Source: a virus. Taken from it: a DNA stretch of 64,000 bases. The notes below the pieces were generated by a model, which was given only the letters and a program-made list of their open reading frames with translations, was not told where the DNA came from and ran no database searches. Numbering within the stretch: position 1 is the stretch's first letter; the number at the start of each line of letters is the position of its first letter. This document shows, piece after piece, positions 1,398 to 37,771 of the stretch. A program made the translations under genes and the position numbers. The stretch lies in the IMG/VR virus record IMGVR_UViG_3300020048_000058. One strand, given 5' to 3'.

Positions 1398-3296
1398 TTA
1401 TATCAAATCTTCTACATCTTGGCAATATTGGTTTAACTCCGTAGGATCGCACTTCTCTACTCCCCCAAAACGATCTAATCCTGCATGGTAGTAGTAGCAA
1501 TCGCGCACTTCTTTTGGGGAATCAAAGCCCAAAAAATACTTTGTTTCGTCAATCTCCCCTGTTGCTGTGTTAAGTTGCCGAACCTTCCAGAGACTTGGTG
1601 AGTTCGGGTTTTTGATGTAAACGTCGATTGCTTTCGCGTCCTCTGCGTGTCCGTAGCTGCGTCTAATATGCCCATACCCTGCCTTCATTGTTTTGTTATA
1701 GCGAAGATCCCCTTTGTCGTGAGTAACCCCAATAGATAGCCCGTGCCAATTAAGAACCCGTTTTATTGGGGTGTAAACAGCACTGTCCATTTGAGTTGTA
1801 GGTTCTTCGGTGGGTGAGGCAGCTTCCTCTCCTCCTAATGCCCCCATATCAAAACCACCGAGGGAGTTTGCTTGTTCTTCTGCTTTCTTCTTGGCTTCTT
1901 CCCATGCTTTTTGATCGATGTTAAACTCTGGCCACCAATCGGAGTTAGAAGGTACTGTCCGAGCTTCATCGGGCGTAATAAATCCGGCTTGAATCCCTGA
2001 AGCTAAGGCTTGAATGTCAGATGAGCGTCCAGAGCGAAGATCCTCAATGGTCATTCTCAAAATTGAGGGATACTGCCTTTGATAGTCGTCGGGGATTTTG
2101 CCTTTTGTGGGGCCGTCTTTGGCTAAGAAGATATAGCGATCAAGAATAGCCGCACTAGGATCTAAATTCTCTCCCTGGTACTCTGCTACCGAGTTAGCGT
2201 AGTTTATTTGGGTTTCCTTGCCATCACGCCCCAAACCCCCAGGGCTTTCCCCCCAAACTATCGTGTGAGGCATTCCAGAGGCTCCCGTAACCCCATCCTT
2301 TTGTACTTGCACAAGTGAATCCATCCCGGCGAGGGGACGGGCGTTCCAGTTGAATTGTTCACGGGAGTCATGGAGAACCATGCCATATAAATCAAACATT
2401 AATCGAATTGATTTCATGGTTTGCTTAATAGCTGCAATACTTTCTTCATCAGATGCCATCATCAGTTCCCGTAGCCCTTCAAAAGAATGCTGTAAAACCG
2501 ATTGGGTTTTAATCAATTCACCTACTGCATTGAGTCCATTTGTATAGTTTTTGTAATACTTCCAAACCTCGTCAAAGACACTCAACCCCCATCCATTATT
2601 GTAAGAAATCATCCAATCATCAGGCATTAATGTTCCATTAAACCGGAGGATTCGAGACCGATGAATAAGGCGATCATCCTGCTTAGAGTTTGTTTCGTTA
2701 AACAGTAATTTTTGTTTTATTTGTTGGTCAATTGTTAGGATTTCATAATGTTCAATATCATCAAGGTCAAATATACTCGCAGCCGTTCTCACCGAAGGAG
2801 CAACTTGCCATCGGTGACGAACAATTAACCCAGAAATTGATTTAATCTTGCCTTCGTTAACAGGCTCGGAATAATGTCTCCCGTCATTAATTTTGAGAAT
2901 AATAACTGTCCCGCCGTGAGAACGAGAGAACTGTAAGGCTTTTCTAAATTGTGATCTAGTTTTTAGTCTTTCGTGATAAGCATAGTAATCGCGGACTAAT
3001 TTAGAACCCACCTTACTAGAGAAATCATCCCCCAAGGATAACTGCCACATCTTTTGGGTTGACGAAGATGGAAGGCTCCACGCTATCCGCTTTAAGATCG
3101 CGTCCGCCAAGCAATTCTCGACCTGTTGTTGGGAGAAAGGTTGGATTCTTCCCGTTACAGGGAGAGGATTTCGCATCGAATTTGCGTCGGCACTCTCCGC
3201 CAACGCTTGCATCATGACGCGAGAGTCTTCCCGATAACGGTTCGCAGTCTCTGTGGTGGTTTCTTTTTTTGTTGTCTCGGATGATTGGGCGGTCAT
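1398..3296 (-). CDS. putative portal protein (DUF1073-like) with an extra C-terminal domain
   Basis: 632 aa. The central region (HRSRILRFNG, GWGLSVFDEVW, SIAAIKQTMKSIRLMFDLYGM) resembles DUF1073-type portals as I recall them. It lies divergent to the block that holds the large terminase. The roughly 120-aa C-terminal domain (GYGHIRRSYGHAEDAKAIDVYI) has unknown function. Confidence 0.6.
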   Translation of the reverse strand: MTAQSSETTKKETTTETANRYREDSRVMMQALAESADANSMRNPLPVTGRIQPFSQQQVENCLADAILKRIAWSLPSSSTQKMWQLSLGDDFSSKVGSKLVRDYYAYHERLKTRSQFRKALQFSRSHGGTVIILKINDGRHYSEPVNEGKIKSISGLIVRHRWQVAPSVRTAASIFDLDDIEHYEILTIDQQIKQKLLFNETNSKQDDRLIHRSRILRFNGTLMPDDWMISYNNGWGLSVFDEVWKYYKNYTNGLNAVGELIKTQSVLQHSFEGLRELMMASDEESIAAIKQTMKSIRLMFDLYGMVLHDSREQFNWNARPLAGMDSLVQVQKDGVTGASGMPHTIVWGESPGGLGRDGKETQINYANSVAEYQGENLDPSAAILDRYIFLAKDGPTKGKIPDDYQRQYPSILRMTIEDLRSGRSSDIQALASGIQAGFITPDEARTVPSNSDWWPEFNIDQKAWEEAKKKAEEQANSLGGFDMGALGGEEAASPTEEPTTQMDSAVYTPIKRVLNWHGLSIGVTHDKGDLRYNKTMKAGYGHIRRSYGHAEDAKAIDVYIKNPNSPSLWKVRQLNTATGEIDETKYFLGFDSPKEVRDCYYYHAGLDRFGGVEKCDPTELNQYCQDVEDLI

Positions 3297-3390
3297 TTTA
3301 TATTAAAGTTATTGGTATTTTTTTGCAGAATTATCTTCAATTTTAAGGCATAATTATAATATTGTTAATTTATATCTAATCTCAAAACCA

Positions 3391-4047
3391 ATGACTTCTT
3401 CAATTGGCTCAATCAGCTATCCCGCTTCCCAACCCGACCTGGTAGTGACAATCCCCTTCAAAAAGGTGCGGAAACAAATTACCGAAGGGGGAGTAGTAAA
3501 AGATGTGTTAGAGGCCTGGGCAGATTTTGGTGGTGCGGTATCTCAAGTGAATACCATCACCATCACAGCCGGGAGTACGGGAAATGATTACTTGATAGAC
3601 GTCAGTGATGGGACAAACGACGCTATTGTCTCCTACGTTCAACAATCGGGAGATACTGCCACCGTAATTGCAGCAAGACTTTTAGAGGAGATTAATGGGG
3701 TTCCTTCCGCATCTGCTTTGGTTTCGGGAACGGCATTGGCCAACGTTTTAACCATTACCTCTGACTTACCTGGGGTAACAATTACTTACGATGTAAGTGG
3801 GTCTACCACACCCGGAAATATTGTCGTGGCTCAAACTACAGCAGCTTCGGGAACCGCAAAAATGCGAAAAATAGGAGAGATAAAAACGTACTTCATTCTC
3901 CCTGTTGGTGGGCGGAATATTGCCGGGGTTTCACAAGTCGTTTTTTATGATGGTGCGAATCCTCCTGTTATTGCACGAACAGGCTCCGAAGCCAGCGCAA
4001 ATCACCCCACAAGTATGGAGGCGATCTCCGCTTCTGTTAATGGGTAA
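3391..4047 (+). CDS. hypothetical virion-module protein (218 aa)
   Basis: Track ORF and first gene of the rightward structural block. Ala/Gly/Thr/Ser-rich. Confidence 0.5.
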   Translation: MTSSIGSISYPASQPDLVVTIPFKKVRKQITEGGVVKDVLEAWADFGGAVSQVNTITITAGSTGNDYLIDVSDGTNDAIVSYVQQSGDTATVIAARLLEEINGVPSASALVSGTALANVLTITSDLPGVTITYDVSGSTTPGNIVVAQTTAASGTAKMRKIGEIKTYFILPVGGRNIAGVSQVVFYDGANPPVIARTGSEASANHPTSMEAISASVNG

Positions 4048-4681
4048 AGTTTGCCGAGCTTGGGTAAAAGAATCAGGAGGCGAGTTGTACACCCCTCCTG
4101 ATTTGGTGCTACCTTCTTTCATCAAGGTTGACGAAGAAAAAATCGAATTAAAATTAGCTGGTCATCCATTAGTTGCGGCATTGTGCAGAAAAAAACGATG
4201 GGCAATTACTCCCGAATTTCCAGACTTTACGCTCTTAGAGGCGAGGCTATCGGGGAATAGTGGGCAATTATCCCTCTCTGGTAATGCTTCAAAATACGAT
4301 ATTAAAATCCCTAAGCCAGATAGCGAGGCGATCGCTTATTACTTCCCAAACGCCGATAATAAATCGCCTCTAACAGTAGAATTAGTGGACAGGATTACGG
4401 GTCAATCTCAAATCGTGGTTGAAGAAGGTGGGAAAATCTATGCTTCTCCTAATCTTTCTGGGCAAACTGTAAAAATTAGGACGCAGGTGATTTACCGTGA
4501 AGCGACACAAGAGCTACAGGAACCCATAGAAAAGTTAGATGCTCATCTTGTCTTCAAAGAAGGGGAATCCTTAGATCGAAGATGGCGATATTTGGAGTTA
4601 AAACAATGTGAATTCGAGCCATTGTTTGGCAATAGAATCAAGTTAGTTAATTGGCAGGGTAGTCGGGAGGAGTGGCTTTAA
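4040..4681 (+). CDS. hypothetical protein (213 aa)
   Basis: Track ORF 3905-4681 trimmed to the in-frame ATG at 4040, which overlaps the upstream stop by 8 nt. The upstream part of the track ORF overlaps the previous gene. Confidence 0.45.
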   Translation: MGKVCRAWVKESGGELYTPPDLVLPSFIKVDEEKIELKLAGHPLVAALCRKKRWAITPEFPDFTLLEARLSGNSGQLSLSGNASKYDIKIPKPDSEAIAYYFPNADNKSPLTVELVDRITGQSQIVVEEGGKIYASPNLSGQTVKIRTQVIYREATQELQEPIEKLDAHLVFKEGESLDRRWRYLELKQCEFEPLFGNRIKLVNWQGSREEWL

Positions 4682-5416: not shown

Positions 5417-7045
5417 TTGGTTACACAGGGAGGATGGGTGACAAAACAAAGACAACATAGTGGCTATCCTTCGATCTTGGATAAGTTAGGATTTGTGGGG
5501 CAAAGTATTGCAAACTGGAACCCCTGGGAACCCAAGAGTGAACCGCAAAAAATGGCTCTGTCTTCTCCTGCTGACATTATCGGGTTTGGAGGGAGTGCAG
5601 GTGGGGGGAAAACCGCAATTATTCAGATTATGGCGGTGACACAACACCGGAAATCAATTGTTTTCCGACGAGAGTATCCTCGATTGCTGGATATTATCGA
5701 AAAATCACGACTACTGTTGCGGGGTAGTGGGGCTACTTACAACAGTAACGAAAAGCTATGGAGGAAGATACCAGGAAGGAGAACTCTAAAGTTTGGCGCG
5801 GCACAGTATGAAAGTGATATTGAAAATTGGCGAGGGATTGAGCACGATCTCAAGGCAATAGACGAGGTGACAGAATTCTCCCTTGAGCAATTTCTCTTTT
5901 TAACGGGTTGGTGCAGAAGTCCAGATCCCCATCAGAAATGTAGGGTAATCTTTACTTTTAACCCACCTAGCCAGGTAAGTGGGCGATGGATTATTGGGTA
6001 TCTTGCTCCCTGGCTTGATCCAAAATACGAATCTCAAACAGGGAGACACTTTGCCGAACCAGGTGAGTTACGTTGGTTCGTGGGGGTGAATGGGAAAGAC
6101 CAAGAAGTAGATGTTGATAGCTTTTATCTCACGATTGGCAAGGAAAACCACGAGGTTTCTTCTCTTGATCCTGTAAAGGTTGAAGGAAAACTCTATTATC
6201 CCAAACCCAAGAAGATCAGAATCGGAGATGAAGACTTAGAACCTCGTTCCCGCACATTTATTCGCGCGACACTAGACGATAATCCCTTCCTGAGAGATTC
6301 AGGGTATAGAGGGGTACTACAATCTCTCCCTGAACCTTTGCGATCGCAACTTCTCTATGGTGATATGACTATCGAGCCAGAGTCAGACCCCTATCAAGTT
6401 ATTCCTGGGGATTGGGTCACTTTGGCAATGCAGCGATGGGTTGACTATCCTCAAGTCTTAAAAATGTCCCATATTGGCGTGGATGTGGCACGGGGTGGGA
6501 TAGATAAGACGGTATTGGCTTTACGATGGGATAACTGGCTAGATAAACTCAGGGAATTTGATGGAAGCCAGACCCCAGACAGCAATATTGTCGCGCAGCA
6601 AATTGCCTCCTGTATGGCAAATACAGGGATAAAGGTACAAATTGACGTGATTGGGGTGGGTGCTGCGGTTCACGATACCTGCCGGGGGATGAAAATGCAC
6701 GTTATTCCCTTGAAAGGAAGTGAAGCCGCGAAGGATGGAAACGGCGAGTATTTAAAGGACAAAAGTGGGCTCTTAACCTTTGCCAATATGCGGACTTATT
6801 GGTATTGGAATCTGCGAGACTTATTAGATCCCAAAAATCAAATCCCGATCTCCTTACCTCCCGACGATCAATTAAAAGAAGAACTCTGTGCCTTCCGGTG
6901 GTGGGAAAGCGGGAAAACAATCATGATTACCAAAAAAGATGATATTAAAAGCATTATCGGGCGATCGCCTAACTTAGCCGATGCGGTATGCTATGCGTTC
7001 GCCAAAACTTACCGAGAAGGATTAGCCGATTGGATGAAAAAATAG
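5417..7045 (+). CDS. terL: terminase large subunit
   Basis: Walker A GGSAGGGKT, Walker B-like LKAIDEVTEF, typical TerL length and a C-terminal nuclease-like half. The start is uncertain: TTG at 5417, or GTG at 5438 preceded by AGGGAGGA. Confidence 0.85.
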   Translation: MVTQGGWVTKQRQHSGYPSILDKLGFVGQSIANWNPWEPKSEPQKMALSSPADIIGFGGSAGGGKTAIIQIMAVTQHRKSIVFRREYPRLLDIIEKSRLLLRGSGATYNSNEKLWRKIPGRRTLKFGAAQYESDIENWRGIEHDLKAIDEVTEFSLEQFLFLTGWCRSPDPHQKCRVIFTFNPPSQVSGRWIIGYLAPWLDPKYESQTGRHFAEPGELRWFVGVNGKDQEVDVDSFYLTIGKENHEVSSLDPVKVEGKLYYPKPKKIRIGDEDLEPRSRTFIRATLDDNPFLRDSGYRGVLQSLPEPLRSQLLYGDMTIEPESDPYQVIPGDWVTLAMQRWVDYPQVLKMSHIGVDVARGGIDKTVLALRWDNWLDKLREFDGSQTPDSNIVAQQIASCMANTGIKVQIDVIGVGAAVHDTCRGMKMHVIPLKGSEAAKDGNGEYLKDKSGLLTFANMRTYWYWNLRDLLDPKNQIPISLPPDDQLKEELCAFRWWESGKTIMITKKDDIKSIIGRSPNLADAVCYAFAKTYREGLADWMKK

Positions 7046-8218: not shown

Positions 8219-10573
8219 ATGCCTATTGTTTCCCGTCGATTGTTTAAAAATAACATTGTCAAAAACCCTCCTAGCCTTCCAGTTCCGATAAAACTGGGAT
8301 CATTAACTGTTACAAAGAGTTTCCAAGATCATCCCAGTGCCTCAATTACCTATGAAGGGATTTTAGAAGAGGATATTAGCAGTTACGAACAGGTTTATGA
8401 ACCTTCTAGGAGTACAAGAATCAGTATAGACGGGATTCCATTTAGAGTCGCTCCCGATGGAGGCTATAGCTATGAAAGAACTGGATATTTATATAAAGGA
8501 ACCAAAAAAATAAATGTTTATACTGTCTCAATCAACCTAGAAGGATGGTGGAAGGTTTATTGTTCACGGTCGGTGAAAATTAAGCCTTTGGTTAATATGG
8601 CTACAGGGACATTATCAGCGAGTCGGTTGGCATCCAAAGCGGGTGTCAATCTGTCTGGCGGGTTTGACATCTTCCTTGATGAAGTTGGTGAAGACTCCAT
8701 GATGTCTCTGGATGATGTATTGGAGGAATATGCCTTAGTAGAGGGCTGTTACGTCCATTATGGGCAGTTTGTTGCGTTAAAAAACATCAATTCCGGCTCC
8801 TCTTATAGTTTTAGTTGGGAAGAACAACTATCGGACGGTTCTAACCAGCTAGGAGTTGCACCCTATTACAATGGAGCCGCGCTAACCTGGACTCCAAGGG
8901 AAAGCAACAAAGAGCAAGTTGACCCGAATGCACCCCCCGAATTCAAGGAAAAAGAACCCGAATTTAAAACTGAATATGAATATGACCAAGACGTAACAAA
9001 CCCACCAAGAGGAACAGCTATTTTAAGGAGTTTAGACAGCAACTTAGACCAATCTGGCCCTAAGAAAGTTAGGAGGACAACCTACTCAATTGACGGACAA
9101 ACAGACAGAGAAGTGATTGAAACATGGGGATTTGCTTATTACTTAAAAGATTTTCAAGAGACTCCAGATGGTTTTATGATATTAAGGCCTTGGCTATATT
9201 GGACATTAATCGAATTTCAGGAAACTCGTTATTATTATCAGGAGGTGGTTTCACCGATTTACACACTTGCTAAACCTCAAAACACACAAGAAATAAAGTA
9301 TGAATTAGTTGTGCATCCAGATTATGAAGATTATGTAGAAAGTGTGGGGTTTGATGGGATTAAGTTTAAGGCTTCAAAGGCTAAATATTTAACAAGTATT
9401 GTCACGTCTGGATGGAAATTAAGCCGATTTCAACAAGAAGAAATAGGAGGAGACACCGATACAAGTCAGATGGATGTAGATGATAATGGGAATATAATAG
9501 ATCCTTGGTGGAAAGTAGTTAAATTTCAAAAAATAAACAGGCAAGATGTAACCAACTTTTATCTAAAATCAATGCGCGCAGATTACGAACAGGATGCAGT
9601 TCCCTATAGCATTGAGTGGGTTTTTTGGGATGAAATGGACGAGCAGATGCAGCGAATGATGTTCTCAAAAGTTACACCCCCAAGAGAGGGTTCTAATCAA
9701 AGGTTGAAAGTGGGCTTAATTACTGCCGACATGGATTTTGTAGAGCCAATGCTGGCGTGGACAGAATCTAGGCAAGCGTCTTCGATTGCAACAATGGCTC
9801 ACCCTGACTCAACCGACGAAGATCCCCTCCCCGCTTTGGTAACGGGAGAAGAAAGCTATTATCAATCAATTTGGACTAAAAAGAACGACGAATATTCAAC
9901 CGAGAAAATAGTGGAGTTAACCGCATCGGGAGCCGGGTTTGTGGATGGGGTTGAGAATATTCGATATCGAGAGATTCAGGGTAGGCCACCAGAAGCTCAA
10001 TACAGGAAAACAACATGGGAGCAACAACAACCAAAAGCCACAACAACACTTACAATAACAAAGAGCACCGTAAAACGATATTTTGTCTACTCTGATTCAA
10101 TCCCTAAATGGGCATCAGAAGGGGGAGAAAGTCTAAGTTTTGGGGCTGCCTCTACACTTAGTCAAGCAGAAAAAGCAGCTAAAACTCAACTTACAATTAA
10201 CACCCTTCAAAGTACCCAAGAAACCCGGACAGTTAGCTGGCACTTCCCGAACATTGAGGGGGGAGATTTTTGCACTTTCAGTGGGGATAGATTTCGGGGG
10301 AGATTTAGGGTGTTGTCGGCTTCTTATACCCTGGAATATGACGGAAGCCAAAATGCCTATGGACTAGATCCAATCTGCAAAACGGACGGAACAAAGTTGA
10401 CACTGGGATTGTGGGACAGTCGCTCTATTCGTGTTGAGACAAGAAAAGATATTGTTCCGTCTAACGAAGGTTCAGATAACAACCAAGGAGAAGATCCAAA
10501 AGTAGACAATAATGCCACTATAATTACTTTAGGAGGGGTTTTGCCCTCAACTGTCCCCGGTCGGAGAAATTAA
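8219..10573 (+). CDS. large virion structural protein (784 aa), function unknown
   Basis: Long ORF in the structural block. No motif recognised. Confidence 0.5.
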   Translation: MPIVSRRLFKNNIVKNPPSLPVPIKLGSLTVTKSFQDHPSASITYEGILEEDISSYEQVYEPSRSTRISIDGIPFRVAPDGGYSYERTGYLYKGTKKINVYTVSINLEGWWKVYCSRSVKIKPLVNMATGTLSASRLASKAGVNLSGGFDIFLDEVGEDSMMSLDDVLEEYALVEGCYVHYGQFVALKNINSGSSYSFSWEEQLSDGSNQLGVAPYYNGAALTWTPRESNKEQVDPNAPPEFKEKEPEFKTEYEYDQDVTNPPRGTAILRSLDSNLDQSGPKKVRRTTYSIDGQTDREVIETWGFAYYLKDFQETPDGFMILRPWLYWTLIEFQETRYYYQEVVSPIYTLAKPQNTQEIKYELVVHPDYEDYVESVGFDGIKFKASKAKYLTSIVTSGWKLSRFQQEEIGGDTDTSQMDVDDNGNIIDPWWKVVKFQKINRQDVTNFYLKSMRADYEQDAVPYSIEWVFWDEMDEQMQRMMFSKVTPPREGSNQRLKVGLITADMDFVEPMLAWTESRQASSIATMAHPDSTDEDPLPALVTGEESYYQSIWTKKNDEYSTEKIVELTASGAGFVDGVENIRYREIQGRPPEAQYRKTTWEQQQPKATTTLTITKSTVKRYFVYSDSIPKWASEGGESLSFGAASTLSQAEKAAKTQLTINTLQSTQETRTVSWHFPNIEGGDFCTFSGDRFRGRFRVLSASYTLEYDGSQNAYGLDPICKTDGTKLTLGLWDSRSIRVETRKDIVPSNEGSDNNQGEDPKVDNNATIITLGGVLPSTVPGRRN

Positions 10574-19938: not shown

Positions 19939-20130
19939 TTAGAATAATTTTGAACAATCCTTGCATTTCATTCGGCGGCGACCGTGTTCGGTGTAACCGT
20001 ATTTGACTATCCTATGGCTACCACACCGGGGGCAACCGTCACCAACAATCAGGGCTTTTGCAAAAAAAGACAGCCTAACACCTCTGATGGGTTGGCAGAA
20101 TTGCGGACTAGCGCACCCGGAGCTAGGCAA
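19939..20130 (-). CDS. small zinc-ribbon protein (InsA-like CxxC...CxxC)
   Basis: CPRCGSHRIVKYGYTEHGRRRMKCKDC. The ATG at 20130 lies 82 nt inside the upstream gene in another frame, so the true start is unclear. Confidence 0.4.
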   Translation of the reverse strand: MPSSGCASPQFCQPIRGVRLSFFAKALIVGDGCPRCGSHRIVKYGYTEHGRRRMKCKDCSKLF

Positions 20131-25546: not shown

Positions 25547-26314
25547 ATTTCAATCCATAAAATAGGCAATCGTCTATTGCGGGATGGATACTTAAATCAT
25601 CATCAACTAAACAGGGATGTTTCAATCCATAAAATAGGCAATCGTCTATTGCGGGTTTAAACGGGGAACCCAATTGTTTTTAGTCAGGATGTTTCAATCC
25701 ATAAAATAGGCAATCGTCTATTGCGGGTTTTGCTAAGTCGGAATGGTAATTAGCATCAAAATCGTTTCAATCCATAAAATAGGCAATCGTCTATTGCGGG
25801 TTCCCTTTACTTTTAAACTGATAATAGCTATCAGGGTTTCAATCCATAAAATAGGCAATCGTCTATTGCGGGAAAAAGCATACGATACAGCTATAAAAGA
25901 AGGTTATCTATTAGTTTCAATCCATAAAATAGGCAATCGTCTATTGCGGGAAAACCCCTGCATAGGCTTTTCTACCATAGAACGGTTTCAATCCATAAAA
26001 TAGGCAATCGTCTATTGCGAGATCAAAGCCATTAAGAATAGGATAAAAAACATCCAAGTTTCAATCCATAAAATAGGCAATCGTCTATTGCGGGTTTGGG
26101 TCTATCTGTTGGGTTACGACCGGGGGATTAGTGTTTCAATCCATAAAATAGGCAATCGTCTATTGCGGGTTCCGTTTACTCTGGGAACCATTCAAGGCAT
26201 CATTGTTTCAATCCATAAAATAGGCAATCGTCTATTGCGGGTTTATAACCATGTTCTGGGGATGATGCCAGAAGAAGGTTTCAATCCATAAAATAGGCAA
26301 TCGTCTATTGCGGG
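25547..26314 (-). CRISPR. CRISPR array: 11 repeats of 37 bp, 10 unique spacers (34-41 bp)
   Basis: The repeat reads GTTTCAATCCATAAAATAGGCAATCGTCTATTGCGGG on the + strand. Copies start at 25547, 25619, 25691, 25764, 25836, 25914, 25985, 26058, 26133, 26205 and 26278. Repeat 1 has A at position 1, and repeat 7 has A at position 36. There is an internal hairpin GCAAT-CGTCT-ATTGC. The minus orientation is inferred from three observations: the degenerate repeat is distal, the reverse-strand 3' end reads ATTGAAAC, and the array is co-directional with the nuclease gene. Confidence 0.97.
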
Positions 26315-26333: not shown

Positions 26334-28007
26334 TCAGGCGTTTCTATCGAAATCACCTAAGCTCATTCGATTTATTATAGCATGAGTTTTGGCGGTTTCG
26401 GCAACTAAAAAATCGTGAACCCCGTTTTTAAACAAATCATCTGGAATTGTTATGGTGTCTGACTTTTTGGTTTTTTTCTTGGTTGCCTTTTTAGAAGAGC
26501 TAGGGGTTGCCGAATTTTTATTAATCAGGAATTTATACCAGAAATTATCGGACAATTCCACACCTTGATTGATTGCCATTTGAGCTAAACCTTTTAACTT
26601 AATGTTCTGTCCTGAGTTGACATCACGAGCAACGGTATAACCACAATTAGAGCATTTGTGAGTGCGTTGAGATAGCTTTTTCTTCTCTTGATGTCCACAC
26701 TTCGCACAACATAAAGTAGTTCCCCAATTATCAACCCGAATCACTAATTTTCCGTGTTCCTTTGCTTTGGTTTCTAATAAATCAATAGCTTGACCAATAG
26801 CTACGTCACTCCCTGTTCTGTTACTTCCTCGTTTGCGTTTTTGATTATTTTTATCGTAGATAACTGTACCATTTTCGGCAACCACTGGATTTCCTTCTGT
26901 GTCTAATTTTGCCTTGGCTTTAGCTTTTCGGTAGACGTTGGCGGGTTTGTAATCCTCAACAAAAATCACGTCAAACCAATTGATTAAATTGGTAGAATGC
27001 CAGTGATTGAATGATCGGCGGTGACGGGCGATTTTCTCATGAAGTTTAGCAATTTTATTATTGAGTTTCTCCCAATTCTTAGTTTTCCCCTCGTTCATTC
27101 GATACTTGCGAGATAATTGTTGCTGCATTTTCCTTAGACGTTTTAGCGATCGCTTTAAAGGTTGTGCAGCCTCAATAGTATGACCATTATCCAATGCCAT
27201 AACAAACTGATGTCCGGGGTCAATTCCACAACATAACCCTGTCTTCTTGGCTTGCTTGACAGGGACGGACGCAGTTAATTGTACATACCACCCCGACGCT
27301 TTTTTGCAAATTTTCATCGGGTTAAAATCGCAACCATACCACCGTTTATCAAATCCAATTACCTCGATATAACCCAATTTTGGAATATTGATCTTACTGT
27401 CCTTAACACCTAGATCCTTAGCGTTGTAATGGATTAAAGTCATTACCTTATCTTTAGCTGTTTTGAAACGTGGACGGCTGTGGCGACCCGCTAGAAATCC
27501 CTCCCAAGCCTTTGATAGTTCATGCGCTACACCTTGAATGAATTTTGCCGGGCAATCGGTGAAATTAACTTTTCGCTCCTCACCTCTAACTAAATAAGTC
27601 ACAATCCGATCCTTGTGGTGCTGATGTCCAAATACCTTTAGGAACCCGTATAGTACCGACTTTTTAGAATCCAGTGAGTCAATAATAGGGCTATTTTCAT
27701 CAATGGCGACGGGATGGATTAACCCCCTTTTCTTCTCGACTCGCTCAATCCCCATCTTCCAATCTGGGATCTCAATTCGTACCCATTGCTTGAGCTTGCG
27801 GTCGTATCGTTGCAGGGGAGTTGCAGGGACGTTAGACTTTGACAGTTTATCGTAAGGGTTCCACTCGTTAAATTCCTCTATCAGTCCTAATGAGCGATTC
27901 CAAACCCACTTACAAACTAGCATCCAATCTTCTAGGGTTCGCTCTTGTTCTGAAGATAGAATGAGTTTAAACTCCTTTGTTCGCACATTTTCGCTAAAAT
28001 TAGACAT
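26334..28007 (-). CDS. cas12: TnpB-like RuvC nuclease, candidate miniature type V CRISPR effector (Cas12f / V-U-like), 557 aa
   Basis: TnpB-type N-terminus KEFKLILSSEQERTLEDWMLVCKWVWNRSL. RuvC-I is GIDPG (D263), RuvC-II is FVEDY (E351) and RuvC-III is ARDVNSGQNI (D462). Zinc ribbon CAKC...CSNC (C434/437, C452/455). Lys-rich C-terminal tail. The stop codon lies 19 bp from the nearest CRISPR repeat. Confidence 0.85.
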   Translation of the reverse strand: MSNFSENVRTKEFKLILSSEQERTLEDWMLVCKWVWNRSLGLIEEFNEWNPYDKLSKSNVPATPLQRYDRKLKQWVRIEIPDWKMGIERVEKKRGLIHPVAIDENSPIIDSLDSKKSVLYGFLKVFGHQHHKDRIVTYLVRGEERKVNFTDCPAKFIQGVAHELSKAWEGFLAGRHSRPRFKTAKDKVMTLIHYNAKDLGVKDSKINIPKLGYIEVIGFDKRWYGCDFNPMKICKKASGWYVQLTASVPVKQAKKTGLCCGIDPGHQFVMALDNGHTIEAAQPLKRSLKRLRKMQQQLSRKYRMNEGKTKNWEKLNNKIAKLHEKIARHRRSFNHWHSTNLINWFDVIFVEDYKPANVYRKAKAKAKLDTEGNPVVAENGTVIYDKNNQKRKRGSNRTGSDVAIGQAIDLLETKAKEHGKLVIRVDNWGTTLCCAKCGHQEKKKLSQRTHKCSNCGYTVARDVNSGQNIKLKGLAQMAINQGVELSDNFWYKFLINKNSATPSSSKKATKKKTKKSDTITIPDDLFKNGVHDFLVAETAKTHAIINRMSLGDFDRNA

Positions 28008-28008
28008 A

Positions 28009-28028
28009 CCTATTTAAGAAATTGAAAC
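28009..28028 (-). promoter_or_regulatory. inverted degenerate CRISPR repeat fragment in the nuclease 5' UTR, ending 1 nt before the ATG
   Basis: The reverse strand reads GTTTCAATTTCTTAAATAGG against repeat positions 1-20 GTTTCAATCCATAAAATAGG (16/20 identical). It is oriented opposite to the array repeats, so it is complementary to a minus-strand crRNA repeat (18/20 pairs counting G-U). Confidence 0.6.
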
Positions 28029-28035
28029 GTATGTA

Positions 28036-28064
28036 TTGACATTTCCATTATATACAACTATAGT
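28036..28064 (+). promoter_or_regulatory. near-consensus sigma70-type promoter on the + strand (TTGACA-17-TATAGT)
   Basis: TTGACA at 28036-28041, a 17-nt spacer, and TATAGT at 28059-28064. It points away from the nuclease gene into the 220-bp intergenic region. Confidence 0.55.
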
Positions 28065-28070
28065 GGAATC

Positions 28071-28217
28071 ACCGACGTTTAGATCGGCAAGCCAAAAGCT
28101 GCCCTTGGAGCCGAAAGGATTAACGATTAGGCGATGAAGAGGGAATATTCTCTAGCCAGATATGGTTAGCAATTTTAAAAATAGGTAATCAACTTAAAGG
28201 GGCTCCGGCCCCTTTTT
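28071..28217 (+). ncRNA. candidate tracrRNA (about 150 nt)
   Basis: Bounded by the promoter above and a hairpin GGGGC-tccg-GCCCC plus TTTTT (28199-28217). It has no plausible ORF. An anti-repeat at 28170-28190 pairs with the minus-sense repeat. The motif CCAAAAGCTGCCCTTGG (28092-28108) resembles part of the Un1Cas12f1 tracrRNA as I recall it. Confidence 0.45.
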
Positions 28218-28229
28218 AGTAGACTCCAT

Positions 28230-28664
28230 CTATTTTTGAAACCGAAATAAAGAGTCAGCCTTGACAATCTCAATCTCAACACAAAGGGCTTTCAATCTCT
28301 CAAAAGCCACCACCGGATCGGCTTCAAAATCAACTGGACTAGATCCGGTCATCGGAGCGTCGGACACCGCCCCCAATGGCTCAAAGGCACGGGATTTGTT
28401 ATTCCAAAAAAACACTCTGTTAATATGTCGCTCTATTGCTTCCGGTGTTTCGAGAAAACAATAGATAAGTCCTGCGACAATAGCCTGCCTGACATCGGTT
28501 CTGAATCGCCTTTTATCGAGTTTAATTGTCCATAATTCAGATAGAAATTCCTCGTCGGTTTCTACATCATACCAAAGGCACTCACAGGAAAATGTATGTA
28601 GGTCGTTGTCGTGAATCTTTGGGGTAGTTTGAAAGCCTTTTTTAGCGAGTTTAGTTGTTTTCAT
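28230..28664 (-). CDS. hypothetical protein (144 aa)
   Basis: Track ORF between the C5-methyltransferase and the CRISPR-effector locus. Confidence 0.5.
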   Translation of the reverse strand: MKTTKLAKKGFQTTPKIHDNDLHTFSCECLWYDVETDEEFLSELWTIKLDKRRFRTDVRQAIVAGLIYCFLETPEAIERHINRVFFWNNKSRAFEPLGAVSDAPMTGSSPVDFEADPVVAFERLKALCVEIEIVKADSLFRFQK

Positions 28665-37481: not shown

Positions 37482-37771
37482 GAAAAACAATTACAGCCCA
37501 CACTATTTATGGGCGATGGAAAGTAAAAGCAACTACCAGAAAGTGGATCGCTGTACATCGGATTGACGACGACTATTGGGGTGTCACCCATCTAGCATCA
37601 GGGCGACGTTTCCCAGGGTATTTTCACTCCAAAAAAGACGCGATCGCAGCATCTAAACTAGCTCGACGGATGTTCCCTTATCCATTGAGGGAAAAAAATC
37701 AACACTTAATGCCAACTCAAAACGAGTGGCTTCAAACCCTCTGGGATGCCAAAATTGCATTTACAAAATAA
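37478..37771 (+). CDS. hypothetical protein (97 aa)
   Basis: Track ORF 37319-37771 trimmed to the ATG at 37478 (ATGA overlap with the upstream stop). Confidence 0.45.
   Translation: MRKTITAHTIYGRWKVKATTRKWIAVHRIDDDYWGVTHLASGRRFPGYFHSKKDAIAASKLARRMFPYPLREKNQHLMPTQNEWLQTLWDAKIAFTK

Follow-up and report, generated by a model that had tools for sequence, protein, structure and literature searches.

A second anti-repeat abuts the effector start codon of a type V-U2 CRISPR locus in a Planktothrix phage

Results

The stretch of viral DNA analysed here, called the window (IMG/VR record IMGVR_UViG_3300020048_000058, 64,000 nt), belongs to a Planktothrix phage that carries a miniature CRISPR-Cas12 (type V-U2) system, the features of which are collected in Table 1. 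The neighbours of the effector gene, encoding ThyX, a C5 DNA methylase and DnaB, together with sequence matches in IMG/VR and to the Planktothrix phage PaV-LD, place the locus in a cyanophage. The effector comprises OrfB_IS605, Cas12f1-like TNB and HTH_OrfB domains (Pfam), and its named homologs are annotated as 'type V CRISPR-associated protein C2c8' (36% identity). C2c8 is subtype V-U2, and the effector could be placed within the tree of this family: it is a small TnpB-like protein with RuvC and zinc-ribbon, homologous to C2c8 and encoded beside a CRISPR array, a layout shared by its relatives. Subtype V-U2 sits near the transition from TnpB to Cas12. No Rfam family was detected between positions 20000 and 34000.

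Table 1 Features of the type V-U2 locus in the window
Feature	Position	Strand	Basis or remark
CRISPR array, 11 repeats of 37 nt	25548–26314	−	Last ~20 nt of the repeat are the partner of AR2 and AR1
Effector ORF	26334–28007	−	557-aa TnpB-like type V-U2 protein (C2c8-like)
Perfect extended −10 TGCTATAAT, candidate array promoter	26374–26382	−	Within the effector C-terminal coding region
Effector start codon ATG	28005–28007	−	Its A can enter the AR2:handle duplex
Predicted 5′ UTR, ~33 nt	28008–28040	−	From the position of the −10 box
AR2, second anti-repeat in the effector mRNA leader	28009–28028	−	Repeat 3′-terminal 20 nt (crRNA handle) in inverted orientation
Predicted tracrRNA promoter, TTGACA-N17-TATAGT (11/12)	28036–28064	+	Consensus scan
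Predicted effector −10 TATAAT, no good −35	28047–28052	−	Motif read in the sequence
Candidate tracrRNA	28066–28221	+	AR1 at 28170–28190; terminator hairpin and T-run at 28199–28217

The first repeat of the array lies only 19 nt past the effector stop codon, and a preliminary description of this DNA had supposed that array and gene are both transcribed from the minus strand. Four observations support this co-directional reading. Repeats that are degenerate or represent older variants occupy the effector-distal end, the distal repeat of the window array being its sole terminally degenerate one; each repeat closes with TTGAAAC and is followed 3′ by a spacer, and on the effector strand the repeats of every family member end in TTGAAAC/G or TTGCAAG; the tracrRNA described below pairs with minus-sense repeat RNA only; and the conserved extended −10 motif lies upstream of the array. 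This motif, ~60 nt ahead of the first repeat, is kept in 6/6 phage-clade sequences examined, and the codons that follow it diverge. The motif probably serves as the promoter of the array itself, which would place the array 'leader' within the effector gene.

In a relative whose effector is 79% identical (L019), the array (5687–6517) holds three repeat variants, in 8, 2 and 2 copies, with divergence rising toward the effector-distal end. The ends of the L019 repeat are palindromic (TTGAAATTCC ... GGAATTGAAAC).

Upstream of the effector ATG and separated from it by a single base (28008) lies the element that we call AR2, which reads CCTATTTAAGAAATTGAAAC on the plus strand and GTTTCAATTTCTTAAATAGG on the mRNA (minus) strand. 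Aligned without gaps, AR2 matches positions 1–20 of the plus-strand repeat at 16/20 positions, inverted relative to the array, and is complementary to the last 20–22 nt of every repeat. A repeat finder likewise paired AR2, as an inverted match, with the repeats of the array. Reading and recounting the sequence reproduced what had been described for this element, namely 20 nt ending one nucleotide before the ATG, the inverted 16/20 identity, 18 of 20 pairs (two of them G-U) with the repeat 3′ end of the crRNA, and a minus-strand TATAAT box giving a 5′ UTR of about 33 nt. The box is kept in relatives, and the effector transcription start is a prediction from this box only. The ATG is the first possible effector start because an in-frame TAA lies inside AR2, and it is kept in all clade members, as the downstream GTG is not; this GTG, at codon 8, was rejected as an alternative start since L019, L055 and L058 do not keep it.

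How readily such a match arises by chance depends on how it is counted. With any 20-nt register of the 37-nt repeat and both strands allowed, the 63 kb beyond the array contain three sites with 16/20, corresponding to ~0.007 expected per 220-bp gap; in a fixed register, the chance of the AR2 match is ~5e-4 by an analytic estimate of our own, which is not the result of a tool. The earlier figure of 1e-4 was therefore somewhat optimistic, although its conclusion that the match is non-random holds and is settled by the comparative data given below. Other repeat-like matches in the window, at 9762, at 37622 (inside an ORF) and at several sites with 15/20, are at chance level and were discarded.

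The 220-bp gap upstream of the effector also contains, on the opposite strand, the best promoter match of the region. Downstream of this promoter runs a conserved stretch of ~155 nt ending in a hairpin and a T-run, for which RNAalifold, applied to seven diverged copies, predicted 33 pairs; compensatory changes support 10 of these. Directly ahead of the terminator lies a further anti-repeat, AR1, which pairs with the same repeat segment as AR2 and with repeat positions up to 34. On this comparative evidence, the tracrRNA is real and AR1 is separate from AR2. As the canonical anti-repeat sits in the divergent tracrRNA, AR2 constitutes a second, mRNA-borne anti-repeat, so that the term 'second anti-repeat', one of the alternatives offered at the outset, describes it correctly. 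AR2 shares 15/18 positions with AR1 (hand alignment) and has the complementarity to the crRNA-kept part of the repeat that marks a tracrRNA anti-repeat, but its carrier is the effector mRNA, not a small non-coding RNA that has a promoter, a scaffold and a terminator to itself.

The effector −10 box lies within the spacer of the tracrRNA promoter, and the two promoters thus overlap back to back; the box was not listed by our consensus scan because the scan requires both hexamers. The same overlapping architecture is found in L024, a Floridaenema locus with 38% protein identity. In five relatives (L014–L018), a ~20-bp promoter block at about −60 to −35 before the ATG (window 28044–28064) is inverted relative to the window; even so, a TATAAT stays on the mRNA strand and a TTGACA-N18-TATAAT is re-created on the tracrRNA strand. 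The mRNA-strand TATAAT is also kept in L019 and L058. That the motifs are kept on their strands despite the inversion argues that both promoters are real. The arms at 28007–28024 and 28170–28187 are 83% complementary; however, no predicted transcript carries both, since the two predicted promoters lie between the arms and fire outward, and the locus therefore differs from a natural single guide of the tracr-L type, in which both segments share one transcript.

The 24-nt handle is predicted to form a duplex with the effector leader from −22 to +1, containing 19 pairs (16 Watson-Crick and 3 G-U) at −19.1 kcal/mol (RNAduplex); it uses the last 22 nt of the repeat and reaches the A of the AUG. Shuffled leaders gave a median of −7.6 and a best value of −15.2 kcal/mol, and the whole repeat paired with the leader at −26.7 kcal/mol. 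Net cofolding ddG values were −11.8 to −16.9 kcal/mol for the leader and −13.7 to −17.6 kcal/mol for the tracrRNA, and the handle:AR2 duplex is thus predicted to be about as stable as handle:AR1. Folded alone, the leader is no more structured than its shuffles (z-score 0.17), and the AR2 site should accordingly be accessible in this model; for the same reason, an intrinsic leader structure or riboswitch was rejected. Across loci, handle:leader energies were −16 to −21 kcal/mol where AR2 is present, the cis form of L055 described below excepted, and −6 to −10 kcal/mol in four AR2-negative loci tested, apart from the GC-rich L029 (−17 kcal/mol). Comparison of own with cross duplexes did not uniformly favour the cognate repeat, the L019 element pairing equally with other repeats.

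Within the coding region, the mRNA segment AAGGAGUUUAAAC (27961–27975, minus strand; codons 11–16) encodes a near-invariant K-E-F-K-L motif and resembles the repeat 3′ end. It forms 12 weak cis pairs with AR2 in the minimum-energy fold only, and the fold containing this pairing is overall not better than those of shuffles.

Conservation in homologous loci had been proposed as a check on the element, and among close relatives AR2 passed it: it is kept in 24/24 loci with 94–99% identical effectors and in lineages with 79% identical ones. Two polymorphisms were seen in AR2, C11T, which falls in an internal loop of the predicted duplex, and G1A, which costs a terminal pair. In L014–L018, AR2 is unchanged though the repeats differ, and it pairs better with their own repeats (21 pairs). 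In L058 (79% identical), AR2 is GTTTCAAATTTCTGACAGGC and the end of the L058 repeat, when inverted, is GTTTCAATTCCTGATAGGC, a match of 17/19 (p 0.002). The L019 element, GTTTCAACTTTTAATAGGC, is 1 nt shorter than that of the window, and the L019 repeat handle and AR1 are each 2 nt shorter (hand alignment).

More distant members of the family carry the element or a counterpart of it. The leader of L055 (74% identical; 2428–2476) contains a full degenerate sense repeat and a 12-nt handle copy abutting the ATG. As the repeat ends are palindromic, the first 11 nt of this sense repeat are also a perfect anti-handle, which pairs in cis with the handle copy over the start region; the resulting hairpin has a predicted energy of −19.1 kcal/mol, and 15/200 shuffles fold as well. 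The L055 leader suggests that the wiring, and perhaps its direction too, can differ between lineages. In L024, an inverted copy of the locus's own, unrelated repeat occupies −32 to −1 (p<0.001), its first base being C where the repeat ends in G, and in L059 (36% identical) an inverted copy of its own repeat lies at −26 to −14 (12/13, p 0.03). The inverted copies all begin at the complement of the last base of their own repeat.

AR2 was not found in eight other array-bearing V-U2 lineages (CL131, L025, L027, L029, L074, L086, L087 and L096), that is, in 8 of the 11 V-U2 lineages examined, and is therefore dispensable for a V-U2 system. In a quick maximum-likelihood tree of the effectors, all AR2-positive loci fall in one clade, starred in the tree (19 rows), which also holds the AR2-negative L025 and L086, the latter sister to the pair of L024 and P0013; in the other clade, five lineages were examined and all lack AR2. 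Class- and order-level genome searches returned ~15 further loci of the family besides that of L024, three of which had an array within the fetched flanks, one being a duplicate of L029. A subclade of 42–45% identity (P0008–P0013) was not returned by the metagenome scan, and scans of viral contigs gave only 25%-identical matches for P0012 and none for P0008, P0010 or P0013.

The conservation of AR2 was set against that of four-fold degenerate sites. Between the window and L014, these sites are 70% identical and AR2 is 21/21, for which 0.70 to the power 21 is about 6e-4; the corresponding values are 45% and 18/21 for L019, and 38% and 16/21 for L058. The tracrRNA shows conservation similar to that of AR2 (78–90%). 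By these comparisons, AR2 is under purifying selection, being conserved far beyond neutral expectation, and in diverged relatives it follows the repeat. The phages become homologous at a sharp point, the tracrRNA terminator (~−215), and the homology continues through the CDS without a break at AR2 and ends after the array (window ~27790–28222 compared with L015 and L019). These limits indicate that the tracrRNA-effector-array unit is a cassette in unrelated flanks, and that AR2 is not its boundary; a reading of AR2 as a module boundary or recombination site was rejected because no identity break falls there.

PaV-LD holds a remnant of this cassette (L001:4880–5260; NC_016564.1, about 68790–69170), a region without annotation in its record. 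The effector ORF is lost, with ~68 nt left from the beginning of its CDS; also kept are two repeats and a single spacer, AR2 and the tracrRNA region. A 27-bp deletion takes out the effector −10 and the tracrRNA −35.

Discussion

The position, complementarity and conservation of AR2 raise the question of what an anti-repeat does at the start site of the nuclease that uses the repeat. We tentatively propose that AR2 couples effector synthesis post-transcriptionally to the supply of crRNA and tracrRNA through annealing of the repeat to the leader, a reading to which, from sequence comparison, we give slightly less than an even chance. Repeats of pre-crRNA or crRNA that are free of tracrRNA and effector would anneal to the leader from −22 to +1, either in trans or, if effector transcripts run into the array, in cis. 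Such read-through is probable because no terminator is evident by eye in the 19-nt gap between gene and array, and it would make repeat:leader annealing possible within one molecule. Annealing would cover the ribosome landing site and lower translation or stability, and the repeat:leader duplex may be a substrate for an RNase III-type enzyme. The tracrRNA would compete for the same handle and so relieve repression, tying effector synthesis to the balance of crRNA, tracrRNA and effector. Coupling of this kind would add to the control expected from the overlapping and mutually exclusive effector and tracrRNA promoters.

That a crRNA, its precursor or an effector-guide complex could mask the initiation region had been put forward in the preliminary description, and of the functional readings it is the best supported, by the anatomy of the leader, the complementarity and the co-direction of gene and array. 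For the sign of the effect and the part that the protein plays in it, by contrast, we offer suggestions, and the 8 of 11 lineages that do without AR2 weaken the case. Two further considerations constrain it: in a mature crRNA the handle is usually enclosed in the ribonucleoprotein, which leaves such action to free or nascent repeats, and repression by an excess of crRNA has no obvious homeostatic logic.

A broader form of the proposal, which we regard as plausible but would expect to fail somewhat more often than to hold, is that one V-U2 subfamily has made the translation start of the effector part of the repeat:anti-repeat network, as a switch that senses guide RNA and comes in two interchangeable forms. 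In one form, the start-site anti-handle would capture crRNA in trans (the window, L019, L058, L024 and L059); in the other, an anti-handle and a handle copy would make the same duplex in cis (L055).

The actor may instead be the protein. The effector could bind the handle:AR2 duplex, or the cis hairpin in L055, as a mimic of crRNA:tracrRNA, and repress its own translation. Such autogenous control would cover both forms seen in the clade, the inverted handle copy of the window, L019 and L058 and the cis form of L055; it fits the resemblance of AR2 to AR1, and negative feedback by the protein makes homeostatic sense. The mRNA, however, has only ~13 nt 5′ of AR2, whereas the tracrRNA offers a scaffold of ~100 nt with conserved stems, so that the effector would have to bind with little more than the duplex itself, and we consider this explanation unlikely, if one to be taken seriously. 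A plainer possibility is that AR2, though derived from a repeat, is kept only as translation-initiation or promoter-proximal sequence without any cross-talk with crRNA. The constraint is indeed not unique to AR2, as the whole upstream block of promoters, leader and tracrRNA is 78–92% conserved, and most V-U2 lineages have no AR2. Yet an exapted leader of this sort leaves unexplained why the element matches each lineage's own repeat (L058, L024 and L059), why it starts exactly at the repeat-spacer boundary and extends over the handle only, and why L055 has a complementary pair in cis, for which reasons we judge it improbable.

Two explanations at the level of DNA targeting or DNA history fare worse. 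Read on the plus strand, AR2 is the tracrRNA-pairing part of a repeat, as in type V-K units (10.1101/2021.02.06.429022) and the type V-A CreR (10.1101/2023.03.10.532045), and could form a truncated pseudo-repeat followed by a spacer-like stretch (28029 onward) that guides the effector to DNA, for example to its own promoter. A TAAAAT lies ~7 nt upstream, inside the CDS, and in L024 the tracrRNA strand carries, beyond the tracrRNA, a 14-nt copy of the handle without mismatch. But the 30 nt of spacer-like sequence have no second match of at least 7 nt within 27851–28350 and none of at least 13/16 in the window, so the partial match to a PAM-flanked promoter site that defines a CreR mini-array with its pseudo-repeat and spacer-like part was not found; as a candidate plus-strand promoter only the lone TAAAAT precedes AR2, and the consensus scan lists no site there; the stretch after AR2 is simply the tracrRNA promoter; and the distance from AR2 to that promoter varies (7 nt in the window, 29 nt in L024), whereas the position relative to the ATG is kept. 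A CreR-like role is thus highly improbable, the least probable of the explanations weighed here. Hardly better placed is the view of AR2 as a DNA-level scar, a recombination substrate or leftover from array rearrangement or from gain or loss of the effector cassette. PaV-LD, which lacks the effector and has AR2, recalls the Francisella remnant of a solitary repeat unit plus terminal repeat (PMC10120712); the end-points of the PaV-LD deletion, however, do not lie at AR2, homology does not break there, and a 16/20 inverted match is a poor substrate for homologous recombination. The idea of a relic of array rearrangement, raised when the element was first noted, is likewise disfavoured by the purifying selection, the lack of a module boundary and the recurrence of the element in distant loci, and we regard a scar as very unlikely.

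AR2 has relatives among known repeat-derived elements. In type V-A, solitary repeat units (SRUs) have been described ahead of the cas12a gene (Shmakov et al. 2023, PMC10120712), and V-U loci are absent from the main text of that paper. Like an SRU, AR2 is a single degenerate, repeat-derived sequence that stands alone in the intergenic region beside a cas12 gene, is conserved among closely related loci without a convincing spacer or target, and can outlast loss of the cas gene, as the Francisella SRU does and as seen here in PaV-LD. It differs from SRUs in being inverted, restricted to the handle and placed on the mRNA start site of a tracrRNA-dependent system, and its inverted orientation on the mRNA implies anti-repeat pairing with crRNA, unlike a crRNA-like RNA that the effector loads.

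CreR and CreA RNAs are degenerate mini-CRISPRs and direct the effectors of types I-B, I-E and V-A to cas promoters, which are thereby repressed (10.1101/2023.03.10.532045). AR2 resembles CreR in being repeat-derived, lying beside the effector gene and, if the proposed coupling holds, tying effector output to crRNA abundance. CreR, however, works on promoter DNA, where its spacer-like part partially matches a PAM-flanked site and so guides the effector; for AR2 the search of the window gave no site of this kind, and the action proposed is RNA-RNA pairing with the initiation region.

A long form of the tracrRNA, tracr-L (cited in PMC10120712), is said, after work by Workman and colleagues in 2021, to repress the cas9 promoter. 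AR2 shares with it a handle-complementary sequence and, on the proposed reading, the reuse of repeat:anti-repeat pairing for cas autoregulation, but resides in the effector mRNA, not in a small RNA. SRUs, CreR, V-K units and tracr-L all resemble crRNAs or guides, and where their mechanism has been demonstrated it operates on DNA.

The single type V-U2 (C2c8) locus published from a phage is that of the Aphanizomenon phage vB_AphaS-CL131, for which a tracrRNA was reported to be lacking (PMC6293099). There too, a cyanophage gene for a TnpB-like effector is followed by an array in the same direction, and adaptation genes are missing; the CL131 effector, however, is only 30% identical and belongs to the other clade, and neither AR2 nor AR1 was detected upstream. 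In the literature searched, we found no description of an anti-repeat within an effector mRNA start site and no experimental characterisation of V-U2, for which the table of a 2024 review leaves size and PAM blank.

To our knowledge, matching of nuclease to guide in single-effector systems is known in few cases, namely tracr-L (Cas9), CreR (Cas12a) and CvkR (Cas12k), all of which act on promoters. If the coupling proposed here is correct, a start-site anti-repeat would provide a post-transcriptional route in which RNA pairing takes the place of DNA targeting, and nuclease synthesis would be set by the ratio of free crRNA to tracrRNA or by the nuclease binding a guide mimic. AR2 also bears on the heterologous expression of miniature nucleases, since co-expression of the array may lead the native leader to shut the gene off.

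The 14-nt handle copy of L024 mentioned above is perfectly identical to the repeat 3′ end and lies on the tracrRNA strand at L024:2663–2676 (−338 to −325 before the ATG), ~85 nt downstream of the tracrRNA anti-repeat and after a duplicated segment of 27–28 nt (AAGCGGGTTTTAAATGATGAGTTGGAAG-like). This copy may represent a truncated repeat-spacer unit of the kind described for type V-K.

C2c8-like genes without an array in the surrounding 2.5–3 kb occur in several cyanobacterial genomes (L072, L073 and L088–L095); these genes may be orphan or still transposon-like members of the family. One of these loci, L072, contains two tandem C2c8-like copies (2469–4154 and 8811–10499), 6 kb apart.
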